A stretch of DNA of 64,000 nt, taken from positions 66,120 through 130,119 of IMG/VR virus record IMGVR_UViG_3300045988_182459; one strand, written 5' to 3'. Both the position numbers and the translations under genes were made by a program. Shown in pieces: positions 6,956-55,188 of this stretch (position 1 is its first letter; every line of letters begins with the position of its first letter). The notes beneath the pieces are model-generated. The model had not been told where the DNA came from. It saw nothing but the letters and a program-made list of their open reading frames with translations, and ran no database searches. The stretch is from a virus.

Positions 6956-6960
6956 AGCCT

Positions 6961-29054: not shown

Positions 29055-30487
29055 CGAGCTTATCGCAGGCCGCAGCCCTTGATAGAGGCTCACTCTCCAC
29101 AGACTTTAAGATTCGGTCGTCCTGACCGTACTGTTCGCCTGTGGTTATGAGGTGGCTGGCATAGCCAGCATGTCCATTCCTTTCTTTAGAATATTTTCTG
29201 CTGCATTTTTATCCCTATCGTGTGATGTATTACACTTCGGGCAGACCCAATGCCGCACATTGAGGCTTTTAACCTCTTTGTTTTGGTATCCGCAGCAGGA
29301 ACAGGTCTGGCTGCTTGGATAGAATGTTGGTACTTTGACAACTACTCTTCCTGCCCAACTGGATTTATAATCAAGTTGTCGAAAAAATTCTCCCCAAGAA
29401 GCGTCAGAAATACTTTTAGCAAGGTTACGATTACGAACCATACCCTTTACATTGAGGTCTTCTACACAGATGATTTGGTTTTCTTTCACCAGTGTGGACG
29501 ACAACTTATGTAGGGTATCTTTTCGTTTGTTGGTTATTTTTTCGTGGCAGCGAGCCACCTTGATGCGCTGCTTTTCCCAGTTGGCAGAGCCTTTCTTCTT
29601 GCATGACAGTTTTTTCTGCTCACGCTTTAGTTTAGCTTCCGCTTTCTGTAGATACTTATGGTTTGGATGTTCGTTTCCATTGCTGTCAACAGCAAAAGAT
29701 TTGATGCCAACATCCAAGCCGATAGCGACATTCTTAACAGGAAGCGGTGCTACTTCTACTTCGCAAAGAATGCTTACATAGTATTTTCCGCTTGCTGAAC
29801 GACGGATTGTTGCCTTGCAAATACGACCTTCAATGTTGCGGCTTTTGCGATAGCGCACCTTTCCAAGTGTAGGAAGCTGAATGTACTTATCGTCAACTTT
29901 AATGCTTTTTGCTTTAGTAGTTGTATAACTTTCTTCTCCTCTTTTTCGTTTGAATTGAGGGAATCCTTTACCGTCTTTGAAAAAGCCTTTATAGGCATTA
30001 TCTAACTGACGACAGCTATATTTGAGTGCTTGGCTATCCGCTTCAGCAAGCCAAGGAAGATAGGTCTTCATCTGAGGAAGTAGATTTTGCGTATCAATAT
30101 AGCTCATGCTTTCGCCGCGCCGCCTATAGGCTTTTATTCGCCTATCTAATATAGAGTTATATATAAAGCGGCAGCAGCCGAGCGTTTTATTGATTTTTAC
30201 TTCCTGCTCTTCTGTAGGCTCTAGCCGAAATTTATAGCCTTTATGTACTTTCAAGGTGATTCACCTCCTTTATGGATTTTTGTACTTGTGAATTGGTCAA
30301 ACCCCCGGAAAAAGTTGAATAGCCTGTTTTTCTCCTCCCACAATTCTTTCTAACATAATTATATCATATTTTACAGATGGACGGGCCAAAATCGCAACTT
30401 TGTTCATGAATACTTAACCTTTATGCACGAGATTTATTGTTGCCCTAATATATAAAACTAGAGCCCCGTCATCTTGGATGGGGCTCT
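29055..30487 (-). mobile_element. IS200/IS605-family TnpB-only (IS1341-like) element
   Basis: Contains the TnpB gene. Subterminal hairpin AGAGCCCCGTCATCTTGGATGGGGCTCT at 30460-30487 (left end). Right-end hairpins CGGTCGTCCTGACCG and GCTGGCATAGCCAGC near 29115-29172. Boundaries are approximate. Confidence 0.6.
29145..30254 (-). CDS. tnpB: TnpB (IS200/IS605 OrfB RNA-guided endonuclease)
   Basis: RuvC motifs [18 protein letters not shown] and [12 protein letters not shown]. Zinc finger CSCCGY...CPKCN. Confidence 0.9.
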
Positions 30488-30616
30488 TGAGTTGTAGCTG
30501 GAGGTGTATCTCATTTTGTGCCAGGGGTATTGTATGGTAGTTTTCGAAAATGAGTGCAAAAAAACAAACACCAGAAGTCAAACTCAAAAATATCTTAGTC
30601 TTGGCAAGTTTACCCT

Positions 30617-30643
30617 TGCGCTGCTGTGCGAACTTCGTACAAT
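30617..30643 (+). promoter_or_regulatory. box promoter site 0.5: TTGCGC-16-TACAAT with GTGCGAAC in the spacer
   Basis: Read directly. Followed by about 100 nt and then the terminator at 30746-30782. No credible ORF lies between them. Confidence 0.5.
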
Positions 30644-30745
30644 AAGAATTGTACAAGAGAAACGGCAAGAGACATTTGTAGTGATTGTAGTTGGTCGCCA
30701 CGAATCGATGCCGTGTCTGCTTGCGCATAATTACCTCTTTTCGAA

Positions 30746-30782
30746 GCCCACAGGTCATTCTCTCACCTGTGGGTTTTGTTTA
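30746..30782 (+). terminator. intrinsic terminator with a TTTTGTTTATTGCGG tail (overlaps the -35 of site 1)
   Basis: CCCACAGG...CCTGTGGG stem plus a T-run. Confidence 0.55.
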
Positions 30783-30810
30783 TTGCGGAATCGTGCGAAT
30801 TGCGGACAAT
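30783..30810 (+). promoter_or_regulatory. box promoter site 1: TTGCGG-16-GACAAT with GTGCGAAT in the spacer
   Basis: Read directly. Drives a roughly 390-nt leader before the flotillin operon. Confidence 0.55.
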
Positions 30811-30888
30811 TAAAGACAGAGCGATTGCGAGATGGGGCGATACCGATGCAGTAGGAATGAGAATCTTAGCAGCTAAAAGAGTCAACAA

Positions 30889-30924
30889 CCCCGCCTAAAC
30901 CGGTTCGCCGGTTATAGACGGGGC
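30889..30924 (-). repeat. GC-clamped REP/IS-end-like hairpin (inverted copy of the element at 40074-40105)
   Basis: The reverse complement GCCCCGTCTATAACCGGCGAACCGGTTTAGGCGGGG shares GCCCCGTCTATA...TTAGGCGGGG with 40074-40105. Confidence 0.55.
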
Positions 30925-31138
30925 TTGCGGGGCAACCTGTAAGCCCAGTTGATTAGCCTAAGCCCATTGCTCCGGCAGTGGGGAAAACTACGTTGTGTAC
31001 TAATAATATAGGCACCTTATCCATGCTCCACAAGTGGTGAGCTCTGCAGGCGTTTCGTTAAACATCTCCGAGGGGAGGAGAAGTGCGAGCGTCATGTCGA
31101 AAGGCTAAAACAGTGCATAACATTGGCGAAGTGGACCA

Positions 31139-31177
31139 CAGGACGCAAGTCCTGACTTATAGTTTTATTACTATTTT
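31139..31177 (+). terminator. weak leader terminator just upstream of the flotillin gene
   Basis: CAGGAC-GCAA-GTCCTG followed by a U-rich ACTTATAGTTTTATTACTATTTT. Confidence 0.35.
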
Positions 31178-31198: not shown

Positions 31199-32842
31199 AT
31201 GGTATATGTGATTGCGATTGTGGCAGCCCTGATTATTCTCTTTGGATTTCTCTGCTACAAGAAAGCTCCGCCCACGGAGGCTATCGTTGTGACCGGCTTT
31301 GGTCTGTCTAAGCCTAAAGTAGTTTGCGGAAAAGGTACATTTGTTCTGCCCGTTCTTCAGCGGGCTGACCGGCTAAATATGCGCCTTCTGAAAATTGACG
31401 TCAAAACTCCTGAAACAGGTGTTAAGACGAAGAACGGCGTAAGTCTCTGGATTGACTCTGTTGTCACGATTCAAGTCTACAGCGAAAACTCTACCGTTCT
31501 GGATGAAGAAGTGAAGGCATCCGGTCTGAAAGACGCCAAGGCGTACATCATGTCCCGCCAACAGGCAGCCATCTCGAACTTTCTGGGCATGAACGAGCAG
31601 GGCATCAATGAGAAAGTTAATGACGTTCTGCAGGGCAATTTGCGTGAGATTGTCTCTGACATGACCGTCGACCAAATTCTGACGAACCGCAAGCAGATGG
31701 CTGTGAGCGTTATCGAGAATGCTCGCCCCGACCTTGCTAAGATGGGACTTGAGGTCGTGACTTTTAACGTCCAGGATATCAGGGATGCGGTGGATGTTCA
31801 GGGCCACAACCACGGCGTCATTGAGGCTATCGGCATTGAACAGGAAGAGCTTGTGAAAAAACAGGCTGAAATTGCCCGTGCTCAGGCTGCCCGTGATGTA
31901 GCCTGCGCGAAGGCCGATGCTGAGATGGCTGCAAATGCCAAGGAAGTTGAAGCGCAGACTGCGATTGCAAAACGCAACAATGAATTGCAGCTCGCCAAGG
32001 CAAAGCTGAAAGCTGAAGCTGATAAAGCTGCGGCTGACGCAGATGCTGCCGGTCAGATTCAGATGAATCTCCGCGCCAAAGAAATCAAAGAAGCGGAAGC
32101 GGATGCTGAAATCGCCAAGCAGAAGAAAATGGTAGACCTTGCCGCACAGGAAGCCGAGGTCCAGCAACGCAAACTGGATGCGGAAGTCCGCAAACAGGCA
32201 GATGCTGACCTGTACCGCCGCCAGAAAGAGGCAGAAGCCAAGAAATATGAGGCGGAACGTGCAGCTGAGGCACAGAAGTTCTCCAAGCAGCAGGAAGCAG
32301 AAGGCATTGAACTTGTCGGTAAGGCAGAAGCTGAAGCGATTCGTCAGAAAGGCTTGGCTGAAGCGGAAGCCATGAAACAGAAAGCAGAGGCATATAAGCA
32401 GTATAACGATGCGGCTGTGGCTGAAATGCTCATCAAGGTTCTTCCTGACATTGCCAAAAGCGTGGCTCAGCCTTTGTCCAGCATTGATAAGGTTTCTATC
32501 ATTGGCGGTGACGCCTCCGGCGTATCCGGCGTTTCCGGGAACGTTCCTATCCTGATGGCTCAAACCATGCAGACGGTGAAAGAAGCGACCGGAATCGACA
32601 TGGGCGAAATTGTCCGTGCCAACAGCATCCAGGCAAAGACCGACCGCAACATCAACATCATGAATCAAGGCGAACAGCCTGTGAATAGTGAAAAGGAAGG
32701 AGGTGTCAATGCTATGGAACGCGTAGAAGGCGGCTATCTAATTCATGAGAAGAGTCTCAACGGTGAGGAAGTCACTCATTTTCGACCGGATGTGACCGAA
32801 GAAGAGAAGGCTATCATGAAAGACAAAAAGGCCAAAGATTAA
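31199..32842 (+). CDS. flotillin-like SPFH/band-7 protein with a long A/E/K-rich coiled coil
   Basis: N-terminal TM helix. SPFH core ...VVTGFGLSKPKVVCGKGTFVLP.... An (AEA)n-rich helical C-terminus, as in FloT/YqiK. Confidence 0.8.
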   Translation: MVYVIAIVAALIILFGFLCYKKAPPTEAIVVTGFGLSKPKVVCGKGTFVLPVLQRADRLNMRLLKIDVKTPETGVKTKNGVSLWIDSVVTIQVYSENSTVLDEEVKASGLKDAKAYIMSRQQAAISNFLGMNEQGINEKVNDVLQGNLREIVSDMTVDQILTNRKQMAVSVIENARPDLAKMGLEVVTFNVQDIRDAVDVQGHNHGVIEAIGIEQEELVKKQAEIARAQAARDVACAKADAEMAANAKEVEAQTAIAKRNNELQLAKAKLKAEADKAAADADAAGQIQMNLRAKEIKEAEADAEIAKQKKMVDLAAQEAEVQQRKLDAEVRKQADADLYRRQKEAEAKKYEAERAAEAQKFSKQQEAEGIELVGKAEAEAIRQKGLAEAEAMKQKAEAYKQYNDAAVAEMLIKVLPDIAKSVAQPLSSIDKVSIIGGDASGVSGVSGNVPILMAQTMQTVKEATGIDMGEIVRANSIQAKTDRNINIMNQGEQPVNSEKEGGVNAMERVEGGYLIHEKSLNGEEVTHFRPDVTEEEKAIMKDKKAKD

Positions 32843-33867: not shown

Positions 33868-35562
33868 GTGACAAAAAAGAACATTTTCCCTGTAGTTGCA
33901 ACCATTGCTGTGGTAGGCATTGTTCTCGGAGTTTTTTCGATGACGGTGATGAGGGACTCAAACGTCAGCATTAGTACAATGACGTCCGAGCAGGCATATG
34001 CCAACTTGAGCAGCAAGATGAAGCGCATCGGCGTGCAGGAGGTCAAGGTCAATCCTCAGCAGCTGGATGTCTCTGAATTCCTTGATGCAAAGGATGAACT
34101 GCCCGACATTGAATCCTCCTACCCATTCGTGGTCGTAGGAAACGGAGATGTGAACATCGAAATCTTTTCCTCTGGCGAGAAAGCAGCAGAGTCCGGCTCA
34201 GATTCTTTCCTGACAAGCATGGCAAAAAAGTTCAATGCCCAGCACAACAAGACTTCCGGAGACAAGACTATGAGTGTCTCCCTGCGCTCCGTTCCGTCCG
34301 GTACGGCGGCTGAGTACATCTCGACGGGAAAGTATCAGCCCGAGTGCTATACCCCCTCAAATACGCTCTTTGGCGAGCTGGTGAAGAACGAGGGCGTAGA
34401 ATTGACCGTTGAGGCTGACCGTCTGGCCGGCAATGTGGCGGGTATTCTCGTATCAAAGAAGACAGGGGATATGCTTCGCTCTGAATACGGTGAAGCGTCT
34501 GTTTCTTCCGTTCTGAACGCAACCATCGATGGCAAACTCATGATGGGATACTCGAACCCCTACACAAGTGCTACGGGTCTTAATTTTCTGCTTGAGGCTC
34601 TTGCAAGCAGTGGCAGCGATACGATTGTCGATACGGCTGCTGTTGAGAATTTCCAGAAATTTCAAGCGAACGTCCCTCTCGTATCCTTCACGACCCAGCA
34701 GATGGTCCAGTCGGCTGACAAGGGTATCGTGGACGGTGTCGTGATGGAGTACCAGTCTTATCAGAATGACCCGACCTTGCAGCGCAACTACGAATTCATC
34801 CCGTTCGGTGTACGGCACGATAATCCTCTGTATTCCATCGGGAATGTCTCTGCGGAGAAGAAGGAAGTTATTGCTGCGTTCGTTTCCCTCTGCGCCCAGA
34901 ATCAGGCAGAAGCGACGAAGGACGGGTTCAATGGTCTTGACGACTATGCTTATACAGGCAAGGCATACGACGGTAACACCATCGCACAGGCTCAGAGTGT
35001 CTGGAAAGAAGAGAAGGACTCCGGCATTCCTATTGTGGCAGAGTTCGTTGTCGATACTTCCGGCTCGATGCGCGGCGAACCCCTGAATGCCCTGAAAACC
35101 GCAATGATAAACACCATCCAGTATATCAATGACGACAACTATATCGGCATCATTGGCTTTGATTCAGATGTCAGGGAATACCTGCCCATTGACCAGTTCT
35201 CTCTGACCCAGAAAACTCTGTATAAGGGTGCCGTGAACTCCCTCGATGCGAACGGCAGCACCGCAATGTACAACGGTCTTTGCGTTGCTATGGACCGCAT
35301 CTACCAGAAATCTCAGGAACTGGGTGGGAATTGCACGCCCATCATCTTTGTGCTCACGGACGGTGACAACAATACCGGATATGGCTTCTCCGATACGAAG
35401 AACATCATTGCCGGTATGGATATCCCCATTTACACCATCAGCTACAACTACGCAGCGGATAGTCTTTCGGAGCTCGCTTCCATCAACGAAGCGGCAGCTA
35501 TCGTTGGTAACAGCGAGGATATCACCTACAAGCTCCGCAACCTGTTTAACGCAGAGATGTAA
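33868..35562 (+). CDS. membrane-anchored protein with a C-terminal von Willebrand factor A (vWA) domain
   Basis: N-terminal TM helix. MIDAS motif DTSGS, then ...GSTAM... and LTDGDNN. RBS AAAGGAGAA 7 nt before GTG. Confidence 0.75.
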   Translation: MTKKNIFPVVATIAVVGIVLGVFSMTVMRDSNVSISTMTSEQAYANLSSKMKRIGVQEVKVNPQQLDVSEFLDAKDELPDIESSYPFVVVGNGDVNIEIFSSGEKAAESGSDSFLTSMAKKFNAQHNKTSGDKTMSVSLRSVPSGTAAEYISTGKYQPECYTPSNTLFGELVKNEGVELTVEADRLAGNVAGILVSKKTGDMLRSEYGEASVSSVLNATIDGKLMMGYSNPYTSATGLNFLLEALASSGSDTIVDTAAVENFQKFQANVPLVSFTTQQMVQSADKGIVDGVVMEYQSYQNDPTLQRNYEFIPFGVRHDNPLYSIGNVSAEKKEVIAAFVSLCAQNQAEATKDGFNGLDDYAYTGKAYDGNTIAQAQSVWKEEKDSGIPIVAEFVVDTSGSMRGEPLNALKTAMINTIQYINDDNYIGIIGFDSDVREYLPIDQFSLTQKTLYKGAVNSLDANGSTAMYNGLCVAMDRIYQKSQELGGNCTPIIFVLTDGDNNTGYGFSDTKNIIAGMDIPIYTISYNYAADSLSELASINEAAAIVGNSEDITYKLRNLFNAEM

Positions 35563-35681
35563 CTCAAAAGCGCGGTTTTGTCCGCGCAGCTGCTCCAAAA
35601 GACAGCCTCCACGCGGCGAGCAGCGGGCAACGGGAGACAGTCCCGGCAAATTGTCTTTGAGACGGAAGGAAGAAGTGCCCT

Positions 35682-36473: not shown

Positions 36474-36501
36474 TTGCCCATTTGTGCGAATTGCAGACAA
36501 T
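36474..36501 (+). promoter_or_regulatory. box promoter site 3: TTGCCC-16-GACAAT with GTGCGAAT in the spacer
   Basis: Read directly. Confidence 0.5.
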
Positions 36502-36584
36502 CAGAAATAAAGCGTAAAGCAAAGGAGTTGAGTACCATCTCAAAATTTGCAAGCAAAAAGTTGATTGAGCGAAATTGCAATATC

Positions 36585-37052
36585 ATGAAAGACTACGGCA
36601 ACGGCTATTCCATTGAGGAGCTTGCCGCAAAATACAGGTTGAGCGTCCGTACATGCTATCGAGCGTTAGACGACGCGAAACAGGAGGCCAGAATTCAGTT
36701 GGCGCAGGTAGAGGATGCTAGAAAGGCCGAAATTCTTGCGGCATACAAGAACAGTGTCCCTCTCAAGGAAATGATTGCGAAATTTAACGTGGCAGAAGGA
36801 TATTGCAGCATGGTTGCCAACGATGCGGGCCTGACTGAAAACCGTAGAAATGAGCGCATCAAAATTCGGCAAAAACCCCGCAATGAGAATATCTTTCGAG
36901 AATACGAGAGTGGCGTGCCGGTGCAGAAACTATCCGAAAAATATCAGCTCTCGGTTCCTGGTATTTACAAGGTTATCCAGCGAGTGAGAAGGCAAAAGGA
37001 GGCGATGAGTCTTGCAATGGATTGTGAAGCAAACCAAATCGAAAGGATATGA
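36585..37052 (+). CDS. DNA-binding protein with three tandem HTH modules (sigma region-4 / HTH_23-like repeats)
   Basis: Repeats YSIEELAAKYRLSVRTCYRAL / VPLKEMIAKFNVAEGYCSMV / VPVQKLSEKYQLSVPGIYKVIQRV. Start codon is uncertain (weak RBS). Confidence 0.5.
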   Translation: MKDYGNGYSIEELAAKYRLSVRTCYRALDDAKQEARIQLAQVEDARKAEILAAYKNSVPLKEMIAKFNVAEGYCSMVANDAGLTENRRNERIKIRQKPRNENIFREYESGVPVQKLSEKYQLSVPGIYKVIQRVRRQKEAMSLAMDCEANQIERI

Positions 37053-40216: not shown

Positions 40217-41710
40217 GTGAGTGCTTTGAATATTACATCCAGCTATCAGGTGAGAATCGTCAATTGCAGCGTAAACCTCAATGAGACTGTTCGCATTTAT
40301 CGCAAGGCACTTGCCTACCTGATTGGTGTTGTCAATGAAAACTGGGATGCCGTCAAACGCATTGATACCGGCAATCTTGAGCAGCAGCACTATATTGACA
40401 AGCTAGTTCATGGCACCAAAAATCATGAGGCTAAGTATCCTGAATTTGATAAGCAGTTCTATAAGTACCCGTCGTATTTGCGCCGTGCAACTATTACGGC
40501 CGCCATTGGCGCGGTAAGCGGCTATCACAGCAATCTAGCTAATTGGGAAATGTCCGACAAAAAGGACAAACAGCCTACTCTTCAAGTAGATAGAAAAGCT
40601 TTTCCTACATTCTTCCGCGTTGATATGTTCCTTGTGGACGGCACACCCGAAAAGGTGAAAGTCGTAAAAAATCCTAAACCGAAGGATGAACTCACGGCAG
40701 AAGAAAAGAAAATCGAGAAAGCAAAACGCAAAGCTGCTGAATTACAGAACTCTCAAAATGAACTGACGGTTTTGAGTAATCACTGTACCGTTCGCTTGAA
40801 AGTTTTCTATAAAAACGACTGGGTGTGGGCAACTGTCACGCTGCGTAAAACGGATATTGCCTATTTACGCAAATACTGGATGCACGCTTGCTCGTCAGCC
40901 CCTATGCTCGAAAAGCGTTTCGGCAAATACAGCCTGCGCTTTGCTTTTGAGGAAAATACTACTCTTAGTGATACTCCTATCGATAAGCAGCGCGTCTGCG
41001 CCGTCGATTTAGGTCTCAATACCGATGCGGTGTGCAGCATCATGACCGCTGATGGAACTATCCTTGCCAGGAAGTTTATCAACTTCCCGAGTGACAAAGA
41101 CCATCTGTATCATGTACTTAACCGCATCAAGAAGTTCCAAAGGCTGCATGGGTCCCGGGAAGCGCATAACTTTTGGGCCTATGCAAAGCGCGTTAATGAT
41201 GAATTGTCCAAAAAGATTGCCGCCGCGATTGTAGAATTTGCGGTCCTCTATTCTGCCGATGTGATTGTTTTTGAGCACTTAGATTTCAAAGGCAAGAAAT
41301 CATCGTGCAAAAAGCAAAAAATCCAGATGTGGCGTAAAAATGGTATCCAGCGCATTGCGGAACATAAAGCGCACCGCTGCGGTATTCGTATCTCGCACAT
41401 CTGCGCTTGGGGGACTAGCAAACTTGCGTATGACGGCAGCGGCGAAGTGAAACGCGCACCAGATAACCATTCCCTTGCTACTTTTACAAGCAGCAAACAA
41501 TACAATGCGGACTTGAATGCGTGCTACAACATCGGCGCACGCTATTTCATCCGTGAGGTAACAAAACCCATGTCAAAAAAGGCATGGTCTCAATGCAAGG
41601 CTGAAGTTCCTGACATTGAGCGTAGAACCCAATGCACTTTACACTCTCTCAGACAGCTGCATGCCTTTTTGAGCACTCCAAAAGAGGCTCAGCCTGAAGC
41701 AGCCGCCTGA
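40217..41710 (+). CDS. TnpB-like (IS605 OrfB family) RuvC nuclease lacking the canonical zinc finger; paralog of 47285..48616
   Basis: RuvC-like motifs CAVDLGLNTD, VIVFEHLDFKG and NADLNACYNIGARYF. No CxxC...CxxC. RBS AGGGAGG before GTG. Confidence 0.75.
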   Translation: MSALNITSSYQVRIVNCSVNLNETVRIYRKALAYLIGVVNENWDAVKRIDTGNLEQQHYIDKLVHGTKNHEAKYPEFDKQFYKYPSYLRRATITAAIGAVSGYHSNLANWEMSDKKDKQPTLQVDRKAFPTFFRVDMFLVDGTPEKVKVVKNPKPKDELTAEEKKIEKAKRKAAELQNSQNELTVLSNHCTVRLKVFYKNDWVWATVTLRKTDIAYLRKYWMHACSSAPMLEKRFGKYSLRFAFEENTTLSDTPIDKQRVCAVDLGLNTDAVCSIMTADGTILARKFINFPSDKDHLYHVLNRIKKFQRLHGSREAHNFWAYAKRVNDELSKKIAAAIVEFAVLYSADVIVFEHLDFKGKKSSCKKQKIQMWRKNGIQRIAEHKAHRCGIRISHICAWGTSKLAYDGSGEVKRAPDNHSLATFTSSKQYNADLNACYNIGARYFIREVTKPMSKKAWSQCKAEVPDIERRTQCTLHSLRQLHAFLSTPKEAQPEAAA

Positions 41711-47106: not shown

Positions 47107-47284
47107 CGCATAAGCGATAACGGAAGCCTTACAGTGAATCCTCCCACGACTAAAGTCGCGGGCTTCCCGCTCCTTTTATGGGTAGCGGCGTTCTAACGAA
47201 AGATACGGTAATCCCTCAGCTCAGGCGTCCAGACGGGAGCCATCACCGCAAGAAAACTAATAACTCAGTTAGCATCTGTACATC

Positions 47285-48616
47285 TTACGCTGCCTGTGTA
47301 CTGAGTTTTTTGAGCTCAGGATACAGAACTTTAAGCGTGGCAAGTGTAACTTGGATTCTACGCTCAACATCCGGAACATTAGCCGAAAACTGAGACCTTA
47401 CCATCGCTGGCAAGGGTTTTAGCAACTCTCTGACAAAGTAGCGAGCGCCAATATTGTAGCTCGCACTTAGGTCGCAGTTGTATTGTTTGCCGCTTGCAAA
47501 CGTTGCAAGGGCACGATTGGTTTCATCACGCTCAAGAGCACCACTGCCATCAAAGGCGAGTTTGCTTGTGCCCCAAGCGCAGATACGCGAAATCCGGATA
47601 CCGCAGCGGTGTGCCTTCTGTGTCACATAATCCTGTATGGAATTACGTTTCCACATTGTCAGCTTTTGTGCTTTACTGCCGCCGTGCTTTTTGCCTGTAA
47701 ATGACAAATGTTCAAAAACAATCACATCTACAGAATAAAGCACAGCAAATTCAGTAATCGCAGCAGCAACCTTTTTCGCTATATCGTTATTCAAGGCTTT
47801 GGCGTAACGCCACATAGCTACGGCGCTGTTGGAACCGTGCTCCCTTTGCTTACGCTTAATACGGTTGAGCACATGATACAGATGGTCTTTTTCACTTGCA
47901 AAATTGATAAATTTTCTTGCAATGACAGTTCCATCAACAGTCATGATGCTACACACAGCGTCAGTATTGAGGCCAAGGTCTACAGCGCAGATACGCCTAT
48001 CCTGAATTTTAGTATCGGAGAGTTTTACCTCTTCCTCGAAGGCAAAGCGTAGGAAATACTTCCCGTACTTCTTTTCGAGTGCAGGAGCACTCTTTTCGCA
48101 ATGTGACCAGTATTTCGTGATGTATTTGACATCGGTGGCACGCATTGCGATAGGAACCCAAACCCAATCGTTTTTACTGTACAGCTTTAAGTAGCACTGG
48201 TTGGGTTCGTTGCTTTCAGAAAACATAACGGTTTTATAGAAAGTTGGGAAACAGAATCTATCGCATTGGAGTTTTGGCTCATTGCCAACTTTGCCGTTAG
48301 CTTCCCAGTTCTTGTAGTTGCTACGGTAACTGCTTACAGAGCCGAGTGCTGCTTGAATAGCCGCTCTGCGCAGGTAACTAGGGAACTTATAAAACTTGGC
48401 ATCGAAATCATATTTAGCAGTGCTGTATTTTGTAGTATGAATTAACTTCTCGGCAAAACTCTTTCGAGATTTGGCACCCTCTACTTTTTGAATAGAATCC
48501 CATTCTTTGTTAAAACAACCAATCAAGAAAGAAACGGCTTCGCGATAAATCTTTATAGTATTGTCGAACATTTTCTGCTTTTTGATTTCCACAGCATAGC
48601 TGGAAGTGATTTTCAC
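47285..48616 (-). CDS. tnpB: TnpB-like (IS605 OrfB family) nuclease, paralog of 40217..41710
   Basis: ICAVDLGLNTDAV, VIVFEHLSFTGKK and NCDLSASYNIGARYF motifs. Confidence 0.8.
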   Translation of the reverse strand: MKITSSYAVEIKKQKMFDNTIKIYREAVSFLIGCFNKEWDSIQKVEGAKSRKSFAEKLIHTTKYSTAKYDFDAKFYKFPSYLRRAAIQAALGSVSSYRSNYKNWEANGKVGNEPKLQCDRFCFPTFYKTVMFSESNEPNQCYLKLYSKNDWVWVPIAMRATDVKYITKYWSHCEKSAPALEKKYGKYFLRFAFEEEVKLSDTKIQDRRICAVDLGLNTDAVCSIMTVDGTVIARKFINFASEKDHLYHVLNRIKRKQREHGSNSAVAMWRYAKALNNDIAKKVAAAITEFAVLYSVDVIVFEHLSFTGKKHGGSKAQKLTMWKRNSIQDYVTQKAHRCGIRISRICAWGTSKLAFDGSGALERDETNRALATFASGKQYNCDLSASYNIGARYFVRELLKPLPAMVRSQFSANVPDVERRIQVTLATLKVLYPELKKLSTQAA

Positions 48617-48634
48617 TGCGAAGCCCCCCTTTCA

Positions 48635-49054
48635 TCAGTTTCTTATTTTTTGAGATGCAATGTATTCTTGTACTTGTTTGCGCGTGTTATCACTGACGGT
48701 TGCAATAAAGTAGCTTGGGTTCCAAAGATGCCCGCCCCAAAGTTGCTTCTTCAAGTCCGGATTGGCGATAAAAATAGCTCTTGCACTGTTGCCTTTAAGC
48801 ACTTTTATCATATCCGGGATAAAATGCTGCGGTGAACACTCCACCAACAGGTGAATATGGTCAGGCATGCATTCCATTTCTACAATATTGATTTTTATGG
48901 TTTCGGCGGTCTGCTGCAGAGACTCTTTTAGCGATTGTTCTGTTTCGTTTATCAAAACTGGTTTTCTGTACTTTGTACACCACACAATATGATATTGAAT
49001 ATTGTAAACATAACCTCTACCATATGACAGGTTATTATTGACGAACATTTGCAT
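48635..49054 (-). CDS. tnpA: IS200/IS605 TnpA (Y1 HUH transposase)
   Basis: YHIVWCTKYRK ... HIHLLV ... Y motifs. 139 aa. Confidence 0.85.
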   Translation of the reverse strand: MQMFVNNNLSYGRGYVYNIQYHIVWCTKYRKPVLINETEQSLKESLQQTAETIKINIVEMECMPDHIHLLVECSPQHFIPDMIKVLKGNSARAIFIANPDLKKQLWGGHLWNPSYFIATVSDNTRKQVQEYIASQKIRN

Positions 49055-49127
49055 AATATCACCATAATTATTATACCATATGTGAGATTACAAATCAAGA
49101 GAAAAGTCGCCTAACTCATGACTGAAG

Positions 49128-50528
49128 TCACAAGCTTACGGCGGCTGACTCGTCAATTTTGGAGACGATTTTCTGCTGGACCCGCTTGTATGCTTCCTGA
49201 ACATTGGAAGCCGTGTAAAATACCGGAAACTTCATGATGTCGATTTCCTCCGGCAGACTCGCGTCATAGGCCGCATCAATGCCGCCTCGCAGCGCCGGAA
49301 CCGCGTCATGCAGCTCTTTCACAGAAGAAATGTATCCGGTAATGTACAGCTCATCGTTTTTGCTGTAATGCCCGATAAGTCCCACATAGAGGGTCTGCAT
49401 CAGCATCCGCTTGAAGCTGAACCAGCAAAGTCGAATAGGAAGAATGACGTTTGCGGCCGAACCTTCCGCGTGATAGTTGCTGGGTGCAGAGACCTTTTCC
49501 AGCAGAATCTGGCCGTTCTTGTCACCGTATTTTTCCTTGAAAAGAGCTTGAAGAATTTCAGTGGACGAAAGAGGAGTGGACATTGGAATCGTTTCATTCA
49601 GAAAAGAGAGGAATGCATCCACGTTGTCTTTCTGCCATGCGTCATCAGACATGCTTGCACGCTGCATAGAGAGCTTGTCTTTCCCGTCGTCAGGCAAGGG
49701 CTCATACCCACAGGCGATACGAAGCTCGTTCTCCGTGACAGCATCCGTTGCGCTTGCAATTTTCTTGAGGGTGTTTTCGGTCGGCTGAGCTTTTGCGTTG
49801 CCATTCACGAGGCTGCTGATATACCCACGAGTCAGTCCTGCCTGAAACGCAAACTTACCCTGTGTTCGGGTTCCGATGGCTTTTTTGACCAGCGATGCCA
49901 GCCTTTGAAAGTCGGGCTCTTTGGGAAAGGTGGCCTCCGTATCCTTATTGCTGTTCTTTTCAAGTACCGACTTGTCCCAACCGGTGACAAGAGAATACCC
50001 AATATCCTTCAAGGATTGGTAGGCAACCCCGTTCTGGTCAAGAGCCGGGGAGAATGTACCGCTGTTATCTTCCAGCTGCTCTACTGCCTCACGCACCATC
50101 CTTGCTTCGTTCATCAGGATGACGTCCGGGGCTTCAAGCCGGGCAAGACTCTTGTACCGACTATTGAGGCGCTCGACTCGTGCGGCCAATGCAGTGATGT
50201 TGGCAACTTGGCCCTTCGTTGCATGGGCAGAGATATCTGCACCAAGTTCAAAATGGTTCAGTGCAGGAATATCCACGCTTTTGCTCTTGGCGAATTCCAC
50301 AATGGCTTCCGCGCCATAGAAACGCTTCTCATGGGCTGCGACAACTTTCGTTATCGTGTCGGCCGAGTTGTCCAGCTCAAGCACTTCACCTTTTCCGGCA
50401 TCCTCGACATAACACCTGGCGTTGGTGAGAAAGCCTTTCAAAAAATCAGCATCCACATCCAGCTTCTTAGCGATGCCGGGCAGCTGCTTATAGAAAATCA
50501 CGGGTGTGGCGAGGTTAACAGAAATCAT
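49128..50528 (-). CDS. hypothetical protein with a central XRE-type HTH (candidate regulator), divergent from the tandem promoter units
   Basis: ...GKFAFQAGLTRGYISSLVNGNAKAQPTENTLKKIA... is HTH-like. 466 aa. Confidence 0.6.
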   Translation of the reverse strand: MISVNLATPVIFYKQLPGIAKKLDVDADFLKGFLTNARCYVEDAGKGEVLELDNSADTITKVVAAHEKRFYGAEAIVEFAKSKSVDIPALNHFELGADISAHATKGQVANITALAARVERLNSRYKSLARLEAPDVILMNEARMVREAVEQLEDNSGTFSPALDQNGVAYQSLKDIGYSLVTGWDKSVLEKNSNKDTEATFPKEPDFQRLASLVKKAIGTRTQGKFAFQAGLTRGYISSLVNGNAKAQPTENTLKKIASATDAVTENELRIACGYEPLPDDGKDKLSMQRASMSDDAWQKDNVDAFLSFLNETIPMSTPLSSTEILQALFKEKYGDKNGQILLEKVSAPSNYHAEGSAANVILPIRLCWFSFKRMLMQTLYVGLIGHYSKNDELYITGYISSVKELHDAVPALRGGIDAAYDASLPEEIDIMKFPVFYTASNVQEAYKRVQQKIVSKIDESAAVSL

Positions 50529-50765
50529 GGTGTACTCCTTTCAAATATGTCATTAGGTGTACAATGCTGTCATCTTCTGTAATTATAATAGCACATCCCG
50601 CACCAAAAAGCAAGCAAGAATTTACAATAAATGACAAGAAAATACACGAGATGACATATTTGAGTGTGACGGCTGATTTTTGAGTCTTTCCTGTTCAGCA
50701 GCGGAACAAGCCTTGTGCGTCTTGTCTATGCCATGACTTTGCCACTGTTTTGCCACAGTTTTGCC

Positions 50766-50793
50766 TTGTGCATCCGTGCAAATTGAATATTAT
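50766..50793 (+). promoter_or_regulatory. box promoter site 7: TTGTGC-16-TATTAT with GTGCAAAT in the spacer; TTTTGCC x3 upstream
   Basis: Read directly. First unit of the tandem duplication. Confidence 0.5.
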
Positions 50794-50817
50794 TGTAAAT
50801 ATAGGATGAATCAGTGT

Positions 50818-50856
50818 GAGCTGCAGAGATTAGGAATTCTGCGGCTCTTTCTTATG
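50818..50856 (+). ncRNA. hairpin transcript of tandem unit 1 (candidate small RNA or attenuator)
   Basis: GAGCTGCAGAG...CTGCGGCTC stem plus TTTCTT, about 25 nt after the -10. Duplicated at 51034-51066. Confidence 0.3.
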
Positions 50857-50981
50857 TGGCCCCTAAAAGTCGTGATAAATGCACGCGTGCGTTCTAAAAA
50901 TGTGTGCGTGCGTTTTTTGTGTATTTTCACGCATTTATCGCTCGTTATTTGTGTGGGGTAGTGTTTTGCCATAATTTTGCC

Positions 50982-51009
50982 TTGTGCATCCGTGCGAATT
51001 AAATATGAT
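50982..51009 (+). promoter_or_regulatory. box promoter site 8: TTGTGC-16-TATGAT with GTGCGAAT in the spacer
   Basis: Read directly. Second unit of the tandem duplication. Confidence 0.5.
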
Positions 51010-51076
51010 AAGAAATATAAGATAAATAAGTGTGAGCCGTAGAGATTGAGTTTCTGCGGCTCCTTTCTTTTGTGGT

Positions 51077-51114
51077 CCCCATGCGGATGAAAATGTCTGC
51101 GTGGGGTTTTTTTT
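51077..51114 (+). terminator. leader terminator directly upstream of the GIY-YIG gene
   Basis: CCCCATGC...GCGTGGGG followed by TTTTTTTT. Confidence 0.5.
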
Positions 51115-51118
51115 AATT

Positions 51119-51532
51119 ATGGAATACTTGTATAAGCAATATAACAACGAACCCGGGAAAGCTCCGACAGGAGAAAAATATATATACGTTATTACTGAAA
51201 TAGAAACAGGAAAAATGTATATAGGACAAACCAGTAATTTCCACGCTCGTATGCGTTCGCATAGAACCTGCAAGTGCAACCAACATAGCGCAATTGATAG
51301 AGCTATTCAAGAAAAAGGTGCGGACGCATTCCAATATGAGATTTTAGAGTTGTGTGCTGCTGATGACGCTGATAGCAGAGAACGATATTGGATAGAAAAA
51401 TCCGATTCTTGCAATGAACAAAAAGGTTTCAATACGTTTAAGGGCGGCCAAAAGAGTTTTTCAGATGAAAACTACTCTATGCTTGTAGAAATGCTTCAGC
51501 AACCCCAACATTATCGAACTTCTTGGCAATGA
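51119..51532 (+). CDS. GIY-YIG nuclease-domain protein
   Basis: KYIYVITEIETGKMYIGQTSNFHARMRSH is a GIY-YIG core. No SD. An alternative GTG start at 51101 lies inside the terminator. Confidence 0.6.
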   Translation: MEYLYKQYNNEPGKAPTGEKYIYVITEIETGKMYIGQTSNFHARMRSHRTCKCNQHSAIDRAIQEKGADAFQYEILELCAADDADSRERYWIEKSDSCNEQKGFNTFKGGQKSFSDENYSMLVEMLQQPQHYRTSWQ

Positions 51533-51551
51533 CCCGGAGTTGTACGTTAAT

Positions 51552-52238
51552 ATGACACCGGAAGGCCAAATGCTGCTCGACAACAAAGAGCTATTTTTGA
51601 CTCGCCGCATTGCCTATAGCTACGGCGGATTTGCGAACGACCAGCTCAGACGCCTGCAGATGGGCCTTCTTCGGAATGGGACCTCGCCAGAAGCATTTAA
51701 GAACAAATTTGAGAAGAGGAGCTTGGAACGGTCGATTGCCGGTTGGGGTAAGGATGACATTTTTGAAATCTCCATCAGCGAAGATGCGGATGAAGAAGGC
51801 AAACATCCGCTCCTGATTTCCGGCAATTTGAACGATTATCCGGTCACCTCTCTCAAGTCCCTGCTAAAGAGTCTGACTACGACCATCGACCAGTATGAGC
51901 AGCCGCAGCATCCGAAAGCACAAAAAGATGCTGCCCACATCAACAAACACGCGATGCACATTGTGCGGCTGTACTACACCGCGTTCGATATCCTGGAAAA
52001 GGGCGAAATCATCACTCGCCGGGACAAAGAGCGAGAAGAGCTGTTGGCGATTCGCAACGGCAAGTACCTGCGTGAAGACGGGTCGTATGCACCGGAATTC
52101 TTCGAGTTTGTTGATGCGCTTGAAAAGAGATTTCAGGATGATGCAAGGAAGACTGCACTTCCTGCGAAACCTGACTTTGGAAAAATTGAGGAGCTTCTGG
52201 TGGAAATCAACAAGGAATATTTGCGGCGTATCGTGTAA
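51552..52238 (+). CDS. hypothetical protein
   Basis: ORF with an alternative TTG start at 51540. Confidence 0.5.
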   Translation: MTPEGQMLLDNKELFLTRRIAYSYGGFANDQLRRLQMGLLRNGTSPEAFKNKFEKRSLERSIAGWGKDDIFEISISEDADEEGKHPLLISGNLNDYPVTSLKSLLKSLTTTIDQYEQPQHPKAQKDAAHINKHAMHIVRLYYTAFDILEKGEIITRRDKEREELLAIRNGKYLREDGSYAPEFFEFVDALEKRFQDDARKTALPAKPDFGKIEELLVEINKEYLRRIV

Positions 52239-52355
52239 AGCGGAACACCAACGACAACAACCATCAAGGTTGTACAAGATTATGCGCTCATCCGCAAAAT
52301 GCGGGTGGGCGTTCTTTTTTTGCAAAAAAACAAAAATAAAACATAGCAAAAAACC

Positions 52356-52383
52356 TTGCACATCTGTGCGAATCGGATATAAT
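52356..52383 (+). promoter_or_regulatory. box promoter site 9: TTGCAC-16-TATAAT with GTGCGAAT in the spacer
   Basis: Read directly. Confidence 0.55.
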
Positions 52384-52406
52384 AACCCTAATAAGATAAG
52401 AATTGT

Positions 52407-52452
52407 GCCCTGGCGGTTTCTGGATTGGATGCTGCCGGGGCTTTTTGTTTTT
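52407..52452 (+). terminator. leader terminator with a CTTTTTGTTTTTC tail
   Basis: GCCCTGGCGG...CTGCCGGGGC stem (two G-U pairs) plus a T-run. Lies between the promoter and the RBS of the helicase gene. Confidence 0.5.
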
Positions 52453-52461
52453 CAAGGAGAT

Positions 52462-55188
52462 ATGGCTATGACACTGAACGACTTGTCAAGCGAACAGCAG
52501 AAGTTCGTACATTTGGCACTGTCGGGCAAGAACGTATTGTGTGACGCCTGCATTGGCAGCGGAAAAACATCTACCATCAATGTGCTCTGTGATGCGTACC
52601 CGCCAGAACGGCGTATTTTGTACTTGACCTATAACCGACTGCTCAAACTGGATGCCAAAGACAAAATCAAGAATGGCAATGTCCTGGTTCAGAACTATCA
52701 CGGATTTGCAAGCCTGCTGCTGAACAAGAAAGGAATCCGGAATTGTGGGCAGGGCGAGCAGCTTGCCATGGTACTAGAAAAGAAGATTCCGATTCCACCG
52801 ATTGATACTCTTATCATTGACGAATATCAGGATATCAATGACGAGATTGCGGAACTGCTCAAATATATCCGCTCTCAGAACCCGGGCCTTCAAATCGTTG
52901 CTGTGGGCGATATGAAGCAAAAAATCTACGATGATACGGCACTGGATGTCTGGGAGTTCATGCAGGATTTCCTCGGCCGCCATGAACAGGTTGTTTTCAC
53001 AAAATGTTTCCGTATTTCCCATGACTTGGCGGAACGGCTCGGCAATATCTGGGGCAAGACCATCAACGGCGTAAATGGTTCCTGCATTGTGGAGCAGATG
53101 TCGGTCGATGAGGTGACGGAGTTCCTGAACAAGCAAAACCCGAAAGATGTTTTGTGCCTGGGCGCTCGAATCGGGGCTATGACGAAGGTTCTCAATGACC
53201 TGGAAAATCGCCCCGGAAACCTTTACGACAAGCATCATGTCTATGCAAGTATCGCGGACAATGACGGAGACAAGGCGGTAGCACCTTCCTCAGATGTCGG
53301 CATCTTCACGACTTTTGACGGCAGCAAAGGTATGGAGCGACCTATCTGTGTCGTGTTCGATTTCACGGAAGAATACTGGTCGTCCCGCACAAACAAGCCG
53401 ATGTCGCGATACGAGATTCTTCGAAATCTGTTTTGTGTTGCAGCAAGCCGAGGAAAACAGCGGATTATCTTCGTAAACTATGACCATCCGTTAAGCGATA
53501 AATCCCTGATGACTCCAACTGGGATGAATTGCGTGTTCCGGCATCCGTTTTCGTTCTCCGAGATGTTCGACCACAAATTCATCGAAGATGTGGATGCCTG
53601 CTATAAGCTGCTGGAAGTCACACCGATTGAGCACAACGACAATACGACCATCGATGTGCAGGCAGCGGATGCCATGATTGACTTGTCTCCCTGCATCAGC
53701 ATCTATATGCAGGCAGGGTTCTTCAACTCCTACGACATTGATGACGCACTTGCATATTATATGGACCTGCATGATGATATGCAGTATTTGAAAATCAAGA
53801 AGGGGGCAACGGTCGAGGATAAGGTTCTGCTGCTCACGGCGCTTGAAACGAATCAGTGCCGGTATGTAAAACAGGTCAAGCCTCCTTTTGTGAACGCAAA
53901 AGCCAAAATGTCGCTCAGTATGCGGCTTGGCACCGTGTTCACTCCCGATGAGTATGTTCAGGCACGCGGAGATATCGACATCCATACTAATGACCATAAA
54001 GTAATTTATACTTCGGGCCTTGCGGATGTCGTAAAGAACAACACCGTCTACTGCATCAAGTTCATCAGCAGTCTGGCACACAAGCATTTTCTGCAGTGTG
54101 CGTGTTCTATGATTGCGCTGGGTCTTCCATATGGCGTTGTCTGGAACGTCAAAAGCAACCTGATGTACAGCGTAAAAATCAAGGATAAGGACGCTCTGAT
54201 TGACGCAATCCTCAAGTGCATCACGAAACGAGCTTACAACGGCGCGGATTATTACACCTGCCGAAAAGGCTTTGTACAGGATACGGCATCGATTATCGAC
54301 CGCTGGACTGACGACGGATATGCGGAAGAACCCATCGCCATCACTTCCGGCGACGGTATCGCCATCATCAAGCAGGGAACTCGCTATTTTGTGATGGACG
54401 GGGCACGCCGAAACACTCTGAACGATAATTTAGGGCTTGGTTTTGCCGATGTAAAAGATGCCTGTCTTGCATATGCAAAAAGCTGTGAACTACAGAAAGC
54501 CGTGGACCGTGATTCTCCTTATTCCGAAGTTGAGTTTTGGCTCGACCAGAACAAGGCATTTGAGGAATACATGACGCAGGCGAGCCATGAAATCGAACAG
54601 CACGAAGAAGGACCGTATGCCAAATACAAGTCTTTCGCTGCGCCTGTCGTCCGAAAGATGCTGGCGGAAAAGGGACTGACCATCACGTTCCCGGAAAAAG
54701 CCCTCATCAAGGTTTGGAAGATGCGCCGCGCCGAAGATGCCATGTATCAGAAAATCGAGGAAGCAAAGAAGCAGAACAATTCTAATGTACCGCTTGATGA
54801 AGCGTTCTTTGATTCTGAACTGGTGGATTCCGTCGAGGGAAATACCGAAAGCGCTAAGGCAAAAACCAAACCCAAAAAGGAATCGGCACTGCCGTTTTCC
54901 AAGTACGGTGCAGATGAAAAGAAGAGTTACCGTGTCGTGAAGAGTCCTGAACTTTCAAAGCCCAATCAGCCGCGCTATGTTGTGGTCGAGACGGCTACCG
55001 ATAAGGTCCTGGACAACGCAAACGGATACGGATACCTCTCCTATCAGGCTGCCTGGAAAGGGTATTCGTACAAGAGCAAGCATCATCTGGATGGGGCAAA
55101 GAAGCCTATGAGCAAGAGCGCAAAAGAACGGGCTAAGAAAAAGGCAGCTTTCTTCTCGACCGATTCGGAACAGCTCAGTTTCGGCTGA
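52462..55188 (+). CDS. UvrD/PcrA-like SF1 helicase
   Basis: RBS CAAGGAGAT. Walker A DACIGSGKTSTI. DEYQDIN (DExQD). About 908 aa. The upstream in-frame extension to 51895 is rejected. Confidence 0.8.
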   Translation: MAMTLNDLSSEQQKFVHLALSGKNVLCDACIGSGKTSTINVLCDAYPPERRILYLTYNRLLKLDAKDKIKNGNVLVQNYHGFASLLLNKKGIRNCGQGEQLAMVLEKKIPIPPIDTLIIDEYQDINDEIAELLKYIRSQNPGLQIVAVGDMKQKIYDDTALDVWEFMQDFLGRHEQVVFTKCFRISHDLAERLGNIWGKTINGVNGSCIVEQMSVDEVTEFLNKQNPKDVLCLGARIGAMTKVLNDLENRPGNLYDKHHVYASIADNDGDKAVAPSSDVGIFTTFDGSKGMERPICVVFDFTEEYWSSRTNKPMSRYEILRNLFCVAASRGKQRIIFVNYDHPLSDKSLMTPTGMNCVFRHPFSFSEMFDHKFIEDVDACYKLLEVTPIEHNDNTTIDVQAADAMIDLSPCISIYMQAGFFNSYDIDDALAYYMDLHDDMQYLKIKKGATVEDKVLLLTALETNQCRYVKQVKPPFVNAKAKMSLSMRLGTVFTPDEYVQARGDIDIHTNDHKVIYTSGLADVVKNNTVYCIKFISSLAHKHFLQCACSMIALGLPYGVVWNVKSNLMYSVKIKDKDALIDAILKCITKRAYNGADYYTCRKGFVQDTASIIDRWTDDGYAEEPIAITSGDGIAIIKQGTRYFVMDGARRNTLNDNLGLGFADVKDACLAYAKSCELQKAVDRDSPYSEVEFWLDQNKAFEEYMTQASHEIEQHEEGPYAKYKSFAAPVVRKMLAEKGLTITFPEKALIKVWKMRRAEDAMYQKIEEAKKQNNSNVPLDEAFFDSELVDSVEGNTESAKAKTKPKKESALPFSKYGADEKKSYRVVKSPELSKPNQPRYVVVETATDKVLDNANGYGYLSYQAAWKGYSYKSKHHLDGAKKPMSKSAKERAKKKAAFFSTDSEQLSFG

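Follow-up and report, generated by a model that had tools for sequence, protein, structure and literature searches.

At positions 50,530–51,115 of the DNA analysed here (the window, 64,000 nucleotides corresponding to positions 66,120–130,119 of the IMG/VR virus record IMGVR_UViG_3300045988_182459), a unit made of direct repeats, a promoter box and a hairpin occurs twice in tandem, divergently from a gene for an XRE-type helix-turn-helix (HTH) protein. The question raised by this locus is whether such a layout represents a switch governed by a repressor and its operators or a pair of small RNAs (sRNAs) or cis-acting RNA elements, as was proposed in an initial annotation made from the sequence alone, or something more common. 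The answer reached here is that it is an ordinary regulatory module, not a new type of switch or RNA gene. In the interpretation we prefer, to which we give a probability of about 0.6, each unit is a regulated promoter module with attenuators in its leader, and the tandem is a recombination scar at the edge of a decaying cargo island.

Anatomy of the Tandem Repeat

A direct repeat of 86 nt, with 85% identity and a period of 216 nt, joins positions 50746–50831 to 50962–51047; other pieces in the same register (50837–50863 and 51052–51079) carry it through the hairpin and its tail. When one unit was used as a query against the window in nhmmer, the other was recovered at E = 1e-18 to 2e-20. Of the two copies of about 220 bp originally described, the repetition and its spacing were confirmed, but the homologous part of each 216-nt period amounts to only ~120 nt. 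An independent ENA assembly (L100) contains the same 5 kb, both units included, without a single difference, and the exact HTH protein is recorded on seven contigs, so that the duplication is not an artefact of assembly.

The TTTTGCC repeats reported upstream of each box are present, phased at 11 nt and abutting the −35 element: TTTGCC recurs with this exact period three times in unit 1 (50738, 50749 and 50760) and twice in unit 2 (50965 and 50976), and a scan of the window found clusters of it only at these two places. The boxes had been located exactly, each having a −35 TTGTGC and a 16-nt spacer, with TATTAT or TATGAT as −10 (Table 1), and the absence of an open reading frame (ORF) behind the first copy was also borne out. 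By contrast, the statement that a terminator follows only the second copy was wrong, as unit 1, too, closes with a hairpin of terminator-like shape and a run of T.

One Unit Is Ancestral and Unit 1 Is an Orphan

The HTH protein, used as a query, retrieved 26 IMG/VR loci at 95–97% identity, in addition to L094 (82%) and to a sister lineage bearing an insertion sequence (IS), L099; with the box pattern, 60 stretches were obtained from human-gut metagenomes, and all the retrieved stretches correspond to this same locus. A single unit is present in 26 of 26 IMG/VR relatives, in L094, in L099 and in about 57 of 59 metagenome contigs, and two units occur in only three lineages, namely the window with L100, L111, and the contig behind L103/L104. 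Since nearly all of these ~90 related contigs carry one unit, this is the ancestral state, which answers the comparison with homologues that had been suggested; the idea of a recent rearrangement is in agreement with it. The duplication is common to the three lineages at 96.6–99% identity. In L111 it is found, at 97.5% identity, without the IS that splits the HTH gene of the window, and L111 departs from the window at 51501; thus, the duplication is older than both the IS insertion and the gene fusion at 51501.

The relatives differ in the number of TTTGCC copies, from 1 to about 5, and in the leader that follows the promoter. Type A leaders, observed in 13 of the 26 viral-catalogue loci and in 17 metagenome loci, have a TACAAT −10 and a plain untranslated region, with no hairpins, running into the gene of a small acidic protein. 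In type B1, hairpin 1, hairpin 2 and a ribosome binding site (RBS) are followed by varying genes, coding for an EcoRI-like methyltransferase, an N6 methyltransferase or a 396-aa GIY-YIG endonuclease. In type B2, hairpin 1 with a clean U run precedes a zinc-ribbon gene remnant of ~230 nt, lacking a start codon and showing a TGG-to-TGA stop, and then a terminator. One more contig (L155, OHJG01001649.1) has the same repeats and box upstream of a fourth, unrelated leader, in which hairpins are again present and a CUUUCUUUUU tail precedes the RBS.

The second hairpin of unit 1 (50875–50921) is 91% identical over 47 nt to the terminator of the B2 remnant in L027, L046, L082 and L008, where the matching terminator lies ~230 nt downstream of hairpin 1, and the 90 nt around this hairpin are collinear with B2. 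Unit 1 is therefore best described as a B2-type module from which the gene remnant has been deleted, and this explanation, a remnant of a lost cassette, replaces the dosage tuning that the initial annotation had considered. Unit 2 differs hardly at all from the one unit of L099, the sister lineage, and shares with it a C-to-U change in hairpin 1. The junction, placed by comparison with L027 and L099, is GGGG/TAGTG TTTTGCC at ~50958/50959, at the repeat array.

Unit 2 leads only into gene fragments. The GIY-YIG ORF corresponds to residues 1–135 of the 396-aa protein of L039, with the DNA homology stopping at 51501–51502, and is fused at ~51501 to a fragment of a nucleotidyltransferase gene. Judged from its sequence, the region between 50.7 and 52.3 kb is a graveyard, in which an orphan module is followed by a module that would drive two gene fragments. 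The GIY-YIG gene at 51119 has no recognisable Shine-Dalgarno sequence, its ATG lying 4 nt after the U8 run of the terminator; other cargo genes behind the same leader have GGAG or GGGAG.

Clustering of the genes in the first 4 kb of the relatives identified a hypervariable island with the module at its left edge. Its cargo includes EcoRI-like and N6 methyltransferases, homing-endonuclease-like genes, GmrSD/HNH, a TIR-like gene and DUF4379 zinc-finger genes, and cargo variants part from one another immediately behind hairpin 1 or hairpin 2, with a third class of breakpoints inside the −10 region. The locus is an example of cargo-island turnover in gut mobile elements: a portable promoter/terminator module marks the edge of the island, cargo is swapped at breakpoints just past the terminators, and decay leaves behind orphan promoters and gene fragments. 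As a side observation, the first genes of type A loci (L024) code for a strongly acidic protein of 106 aa without family match, a lipoprotein-like ORF and a third protein with a macro-domain-like GxMGAGLA motif, for which no Pfam match was found at 1e-3; a role of these three genes as anti-restriction or anti-ADP-ribosylation cargo is possible.

Table 1. Coordinates of the features at and around the tandem units (window positions).
Feature	Position	Strand	Description
Unit 1 repeats	50738..50765	+	Three TTTGCC, 11-nt period, ending at the −35; copy number varies in relatives
Unit 1 box promoter	50766..50793	+	TTGTGC, 16-nt spacer with GTGCAAA, TATTAT
Unit 1 hairpin 1	50818..50854	+	11-bp stem with one G·U pair, UUUCUUA tail; −17.5 kcal/mol
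Unit 1 second hairpin	50877..50921	+	Intrinsic terminator shape; 17 pairs and T run
Unit 2 repeats	50965..50981	+	Two TTTGCC; duplication junction just upstream
Unit 2 box promoter	50982..51009	+	TTGTGC, 16-nt spacer with GTGCGAA, TATGAT
Unit 2 hairpin 1	51034..51071	+	13-bp stem, C-to-U change keeping a G·U pair, CUUUCUUUU tail; −19.8 kcal/mol
Unit 2 hairpin 2	51077..51114	+	Strong intrinsic terminator shape, 12–13 bp then U8; −21.1 kcal/mol
GIY-YIG homing-endonuclease gene, truncated	51119..51532	+	Catalytic domain only; Pfam GIY-YIG 3.9e-11; PHROG homing endonuclease
Nucleotidyltransferase fragment, 5′-truncated	51540..52238	+	Residues 104–335 of 335; phrog_388 8e-25, profile positions 122–335; blastp against F4 of L025
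Next box promoter with its own leader terminator	52354..52445	+	−10 ends at 52383; −27.4 kcal/mol; ahead of the UvrD-like helicase gene
UvrD-like helicase gene	52468–55188		First intact gene after the units; Pfam helicase match, gene call in L100
Probable HTH operators	50548..50656		TGTCAT (50548, 50568) and ATGACA (50631, 50651); 42-nt imperfect inverted repeat
XRE-type HTH gene, truncated	49128..50528	−	466 aa; Pfam HTH_3 at residues 222–269
IS200/IS605-type insertion splitting the HTH gene	47134..49148	−	TnpA 48635–49054, TnpB-like 47285–48616

The Box Belongs to an Element-Wide Promoter Class

The interpretation of the boxes as promoters gains from their recurrence. The pattern GTGCRAA-N5-KANNAT has 12 matches in the window, all on the plus strand, against 0.12 expected from dinucleotide-preserving shuffles. 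The consensus is TTGCnn, a 16-nt spacer containing GTGCGAAyTG, and TAyAAT; in most copies the box is preceded, at a distance of exactly 10 nt, by TTG, and at 22888 and 59257 by TCG. In the hairpin-less copies the RBS and the start codon follow the −10 by 19–56 nt, as expected of a real promoter, and the box also precedes the equivalent gene block in L095, in which the HTH protein is only 51% identical. At 7 of the 12 box promoters (22888, 30626, 42690, 50776, 50992, 52366 and 59257) a canonical intrinsic terminator, of −17 to −27 kcal/mol and with a U tract, stands before any gene or RBS; the arrangement at 50530–51115 is one instance of an element-wide habit.

This promoter class, with 12 copies on one strand and a conserved spacer box, is the more useful outcome of the analysis. 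It is a candidate for a co-regulated, establishment-like regulon in an element of uncultured Firmicutes, and the box promoters with promoter-proximal terminators are concrete sites at which a repressor or an antiterminator could be sought.

Other copies of the box have surroundings of their own. At 30607–30810 this kind of tandem recurs, with box promoters at 30626 and 30793: the first is followed by a structured, ORF-less stretch of ~140 nt and by a strong terminator at 30748–30778 (−21.7 kcal/mol), and then comes the second. Directly behind the box promoter 36484 is encoded a Mor/C-family (‘late transcriptional activator’) protein with two HTH regions (36474–37052), which is a candidate regulator of the promoter class. 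Moreover, the box promoter 22888 and its terminator hairpin open a non-coding stretch of ~550 nt (22888–23450) in which four ACTTGCTA repeats follow at an exact 11-nt period (23024, 23035, 23046 and 23057), with an inverted copy nearby; a function as centromere-like site, origin or operator array is conceivable.

The Leader Hairpins Resemble Intrinsic Terminators

The core hairpins (50818–50847 and 51034–51062) have perfect stems of 11–13 bp and U-rich tails, which read UUUCUU(A/U), and the second hairpin of unit 1 reaches −18.9 kcal/mol and ends in U6. Compared with shuffled sequences, the whole leaders gave fold z-scores of −3.4 for unit 1 and −7.4 for unit 2. On the transcribed strand the hairpins are G+C-rich stem-loops directly before a U-rich tract, as intrinsic terminators are, and, if the predicted −10 elements (50788–50793 and 51004–51009) are used, they fall between the start of transcription and the first start codon. 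The expectation of a short terminated transcript from each unit is supported by the sequence. The hairpins do not qualify as a conserved RNA gene, being canonical intrinsic terminators of a 5′ leader that are missing in half of the relatives. Rfam 15 returned nothing at 50500–51200 at gathering thresholds, the best permissive match having 23 bits against thresholds of 60–81, and a scan of IMG/VR with a loose hairpin-1 pattern returned almost only unrelated sequences; by this comparison, hairpin 1 is confined to this element family.

We considered whether the units could be genes of trans-acting sRNAs, each having its own promoter, an A/U-rich single-stranded 5′ seed of ~18 nt and a terminator hairpin, with the duplication giving two paralogues. 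Unit 1, with promoter, terminator and no ORF, has an architecture like that of many sRNAs, and a second ORF-less promoter-to-terminator unit lies at 30626–30785, just upstream of another box promoter. However, in ~40 relatives the hairpins are the leader of a protein gene and in ~30 they are absent, the ORF-less unit exists only in the window with L100, L111 and L103/L104, and its arrangement is explained by gene loss. In addition, no Rfam match was obtained, and the two seeds differ from each other at 5 of 18 positions; a duplex scan with the seeds on both strands of the window recovered only the units themselves and a same-strand look-alike in the GIY-YIG gene, so that no target complementarity speaks for the pair of sRNAs or cis-acting RNA elements originally suggested. 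We therefore judge sRNA genes quite unlikely.

The comparison of the folds for covariation, also proposed at the outset, did not reveal double compensatory changes in the hairpin stems among 9 distinct sequences: all 198 cells were paired and 20 of 22 pairs were invariant, which leaves this test without power. In the larger set, the stem changes seen in well-covered contigs (window units 1 and 2, L039/L128 and L103/L111) kept the pairing as G·U or U-A on the plus strand; at the base of hairpin 1 there is one G-C to A-U swap between types B1 and B2, and the loops vary freely, with at least 7 and 4 haplotypes. Comparative support for an RNA structure is, on these alignments, modest. A leader-peptide interpretation of MRMKMSAWGF, inside hairpin 2, was discarded, as it has no Shine-Dalgarno sequence and the ATG in L030/L037 just runs in-frame into the next gene; a likeness of 17 nt between the unit leaders and 51219–51235, inside the GIY-YIG gene, was at chance level in an all-against-all comparison and was likewise dropped.

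The stem changes also bear on a further explanation, namely that repeats and hairpins together form a cis-acting DNA site, such as an iteron origin, an origin of transfer (oriT), a single-strand initiation site or a site of cassette recombination. Repeats phased at 11 nt, beside AT-rich DNA and hairpins, in the intergenic space between divergent genes of a plasmid-like element could be taken in this sense, as could the cargo breakpoints right after hairpins 1 and 2, and the AAGTGTGAGCC sequence before hairpin 1 may be loosely like the nick regions of MOBQ/MOBV systems. Nevertheless, a repeat number between 1 and about 5 and the lack of both hairpins in half of the relatives with 95–97% identity are incompatible with an essential origin or oriT, and on these grounds the origin, oriT and integron-like readings were rejected. 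Furthermore, the third class of breakpoints, inside the −10 region, argues against a single recombination site, no recombinase or relaxase is adjacent, and substitutions giving G·U on the plus strand only fit RNA better than duplex DNA. Hence, a DNA site appears very improbable.

If the hairpins act as terminators, transcription must pass them to reach the cargo. By constrained folding no alternative antiterminator fold was found for hairpin 2: when its 3′ arm was withheld, the 5′ arm stayed essentially unpaired and hairpin 1 was merely extended by A/U pairs. This rules out classical attenuation and zipper attenuation of the pLS20 type, and read-through must stem from leakiness or from a factor.

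Such a factor could belong to a processive antitermination system, as lambda Q or pLS20 conAn, in which case the terminators would be checkpoints, the spacer box a loading site and the short RNAs by-products like lambda 6S. This explanation is compatible with that of an attenuated promoter module, but we give it only a fairly low probability. The lambda Q protein binds between −35 and −10, where the box promoters also have a conserved element, and the terminator ahead of the first gene or RBS at 7 of the 12 points in the same direction. The −10-like AAGATAA/TATAAG motifs at ~+10 after the −10 in the leaders 50992, 52366 and 42690 might be added, but they sit in AT-rich sequence. It has been reported that antitermination is widespread in Gram-positive conjugative elements, pLS20 with its conAn system being one of them (PMC8191782). 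On the other hand, the ~65 ORFs scanned in the window, itself only a quarter to a third of the element, gave no match to Q, N, NusG/LoaP-like or other antiterminator families, no search for ConAn1 being made among them, and leaky terminators would require no factor at all.

A more far-reaching version supposes that a dedicated factor reads the GTGCGAAyTG box at the at least 12 same-strand promoters and makes RNA polymerase resistant to terminators, that the seven terminator-bearing promoters become productive only after this factor appears, and that unit 1 and the unit at 30626–30785 persist because their short RNAs are useful. It would be an undescribed, genome-wide timing circuit, which we consider speculative and rather unlikely.

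The Divergent HTH Gene and Its Probable Operators

A divergent HTH gene is indeed present, but the 466-aa protein attributed to it is the product of a truncated and disrupted ORF. Members of this family have 626–628 aa, and the 628-aa relative P0001 aligned in tblastn as two fragments of the window, residues 1–460 at 50528–49149 and residues 531–628 at 47133–46840, residues 461–530 being lost. The gap between the fragments is filled by an IS200/IS605-type insertion, recognised by a Pfam Y1_Tnp match (4e-41) and by a weak Cas12f1-like TNB match. The IS is missing from the corresponding locus of L111, and the HTH gene of L099 is also cut by an IS. Two more TnpB-like genes are found in the window at 29145–30254 (minus strand) and 40217–41710 (plus strand), the latter behind the box promoter 40174.

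The promoter of the HTH gene, predicted by eye on the minus strand (−35 at 50613–50608, −10 at 50590–50585), is symmetrically flanked by the TGTCAT and ATGACA repeats. The corresponding repeats in distant lineages are TGTCTAAA (L095) and TGTATCAT (L096), so that the motif changes with the lineage of the HTH protein. Because they flank the promoter of the regulator and change with its lineage, TGTCAT/ATGACA are better operator candidates than TTTTGCC, and are the likelier binding sites of the HTH protein as far as can be read from the sequence.

These repeats weigh on the possibility that the locus is a switch run by the divergent HTH protein, with TTTTGCC as its operators and the two units allowing cooperative or graded control. 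In favour of it are the divergent layout and the direct repeats abutting the −35 as in plasmid p576 (see below); moreover, TTTTGCC repeats are found only where the HTH protein is at least 82% identical (the limit being L094) and are absent where it is 42–51% identical. Nonetheless, it is the four TGTCAT/ATGACA copies that flank the HTH promoter and vary with the HTH lineage, as operators should, and type A relatives, with HTH proteins 95–97% identical, keep only one TTTTGCC. In addition, an IS interrupts the HTH gene of the window and that of L099, and the second unit came from cassette recombination and not from the copying of the operator region alone. A repressor-operator switch, as initially suggested, is plausible in kind, but the motifs that covary with the regulator are not those at the two units and the regulator gene is interrupted; we find a switch built on TTTTGCC doubtful.

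Comparison with Known Systems

By analogy of architecture, the nearest described system is that of the EGeRS2 establishment promoters of the Bacillus plasmid p576, in which heptamer direct repeats immediately upstream of the −35 are bound by the repressor Reg576 (Val-Calvo et al. 2021, PMC8708921). The p576 promoters recur ahead of several operons, gene content is mosaic between close relatives and expression after transfer is transient (PMC8708921). Likewise, the locus studied here has a predicted strong sigma-A-type promoter with direct repeats abutting the −35, and related promoters recur upstream of operons in the same direction, whose genes, probably including anti-restriction genes, are highly variable and replaced. 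There is, however, no sequence similarity, the repeat being TTTTGCC with an 11-nt period here and TTATCCCnnTTATCCC or TTATCCC there. Moreover, the repeats of our element occur at one locus only, whereas in the p576 type the operator motif stands at several promoters, that of the repressor gene included; what all the promoters of our element share is the GTGCGAA spacer box, no ribbon-helix-helix repressor was found, and leader terminators are absent from EGeRS2. For these reasons we do not file the locus as a member of the p576 type.

With lambda PR′-tR′ the locus has in common, in architecture only, an intrinsic terminator close after the promoter, which makes a short RNA the default product, and a conserved element between −35 and −10. 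It differs in having no Q homologue among the window ORFs and in belonging to a plasmid-like element with many promoters and tandem terminators.

The leader of the pLS20 conjugation operon, of 456 nt, contains a zipper-type attenuator, cATT, in which upstream complementarity forms the antiterminator (PMC13401043). In both cases an operon of a Gram-positive element, conjugative in pLS20 and probably so here, carries an intrinsic terminator in its 5′ leader, and terminators have to be read through; here the leader is of only ~100 nt, constrained folding revealed no cATT-like complementarity, and conAn components were not identified.

Phage Aca operators are inverted repeats overlapping a promoter, and their regulator is co-transcribed with anti-CRISPR cargo (summarised in PMC8708921). 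An HTH regulator beside a strong promoter of variable counter-defence cargo, with transient expression on entry as the proposed logic, is similar, whereas the HTH gene of the window is divergent, large (628 aa) and interrupted. In the literature we found nothing on promoter-proximal terminators with phage antitermination, nor on the box sequence, and the understanding of the known systems is unchanged by this locus.

Kind of Element and Host

The window was initially assumed to be phage DNA, an assumption that was dropped after matches to components of a type IV secretion system (T4SS): a coupling protein (T4SS-DNA_transf, 3e-48) and a TraG P-loop ATPase are encoded at 1617–3785 and 6952–9621. 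No phage-structural gene was matched among the ~65 ORFs scanned in the window, which also code for a Y-family polymerase, NADAR, DUF3990/ART-PolyVal, SNF2 and UvrD helicases, a Mor-like regulator and three TnpB-like proteins. Since it has T4SS genes and nothing phage-structural, we treated the element as of conjugative type, and its gene content indicates that it is probably conjugative. The window represents a quarter to a third of an element of 170–280 kb.

BLAST of the locus against INPHARED phages and PLSDB plasmids gave no match, and the HTH protein had no close relative among the GTDB representative genomes, hence no host was assigned. The nearest cultured relatives of the helicase, at ~50% identity, are from Faecalibacterium and Streptococcus phages.

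A Proposed Regulated Promoter Module in a Decaying Cargo Island

The repeat, the promoter class, the shapes of the terminators, the comparative history and the truncations of the genes were computed directly, and from them we infer promoter activity, start site, termination, a binder of the repeats and a role in establishment. We propose that the module belongs to a large, probably conjugative mobile element of human-gut Firmicutes and that it would have three parts. The first, TTTTGCC phased at 11 nt and abutting the −35, may bind a repressor or activator as an operator array, or else act as a phased T-tract of the UP-like kind. The second would be a sigma-A-type promoter of the class proper to the element, with the spacer box GTGCGAAyTG. 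The third is a 5′ leader in which one or two intrinsic terminators, factor-independent in appearance and starting within ~25 nt, would attenuate transcription into the cargo. The module would sit at the left edge of a hypervariable island of probable establishment or anti-restriction cargo.

As for the tandem, recombination at the repeat array presumably linked a GIY-YIG cassette, which brought its own module, to a variant in which the first gene had already decayed and was later lost by deletion. Unit 1 would have been left as an orphan, made of promoter, hairpin 1 and the 3′ terminator of the old gene, and could give only short terminated RNAs of ~55 and ~120 nt, while unit 2 would now drive two gene fragments. 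The leader attenuator may serve to limit the expression of the cargo, costly endonucleases and methyltransferases included, and the short RNAs are likely by-products.

Several points weigh against this interpretation. Promoter activity, start sites and termination efficiency are predictions in every case, and the evidence for constraint on the hairpin stems is, by the comparisons above, weak; four singleton changes even break the stems, in contigs of 1.9–3.1x coverage. Terminators placed right after the promoter would silence the cargo without read-through, so that a missing factor or leakiness has to be assumed, and no repressor or antiterminator gene was identified in the scan of the window ORFs. 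The other ten box promoters do not have TTTTGCC repeats, which therefore, unlike the p576 motifs, define no regulon. Finally, the window yielded no relaxase and no oriT, the related contigs (40–280 kb, from human gut samples) are catalogued as viral in IMG/VR, and to call the block a ‘leading/establishment region’ is to argue by analogy.

Structured RNAs Elsewhere in the Window

Rfam also matched structured RNAs far from the tandem units. A HEARO (IscB-type guide) RNA was recognised at 30881–31141, with 91 bits against a gathering threshold of 83, behind the box promoter 30793; the ORF that follows it (31199–32842) codes for an SPFH/flotillin protein and not for an IscB/HNH nuclease, and the RNA may be an orphan or have been relocated. 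Finally, an HDV-like ribozyme of the HDV-F-prausnitzii family (60 bits, gathering threshold 44) lies at 35589–35658, just after a gene for a VWA-domain protein (33868–35562).

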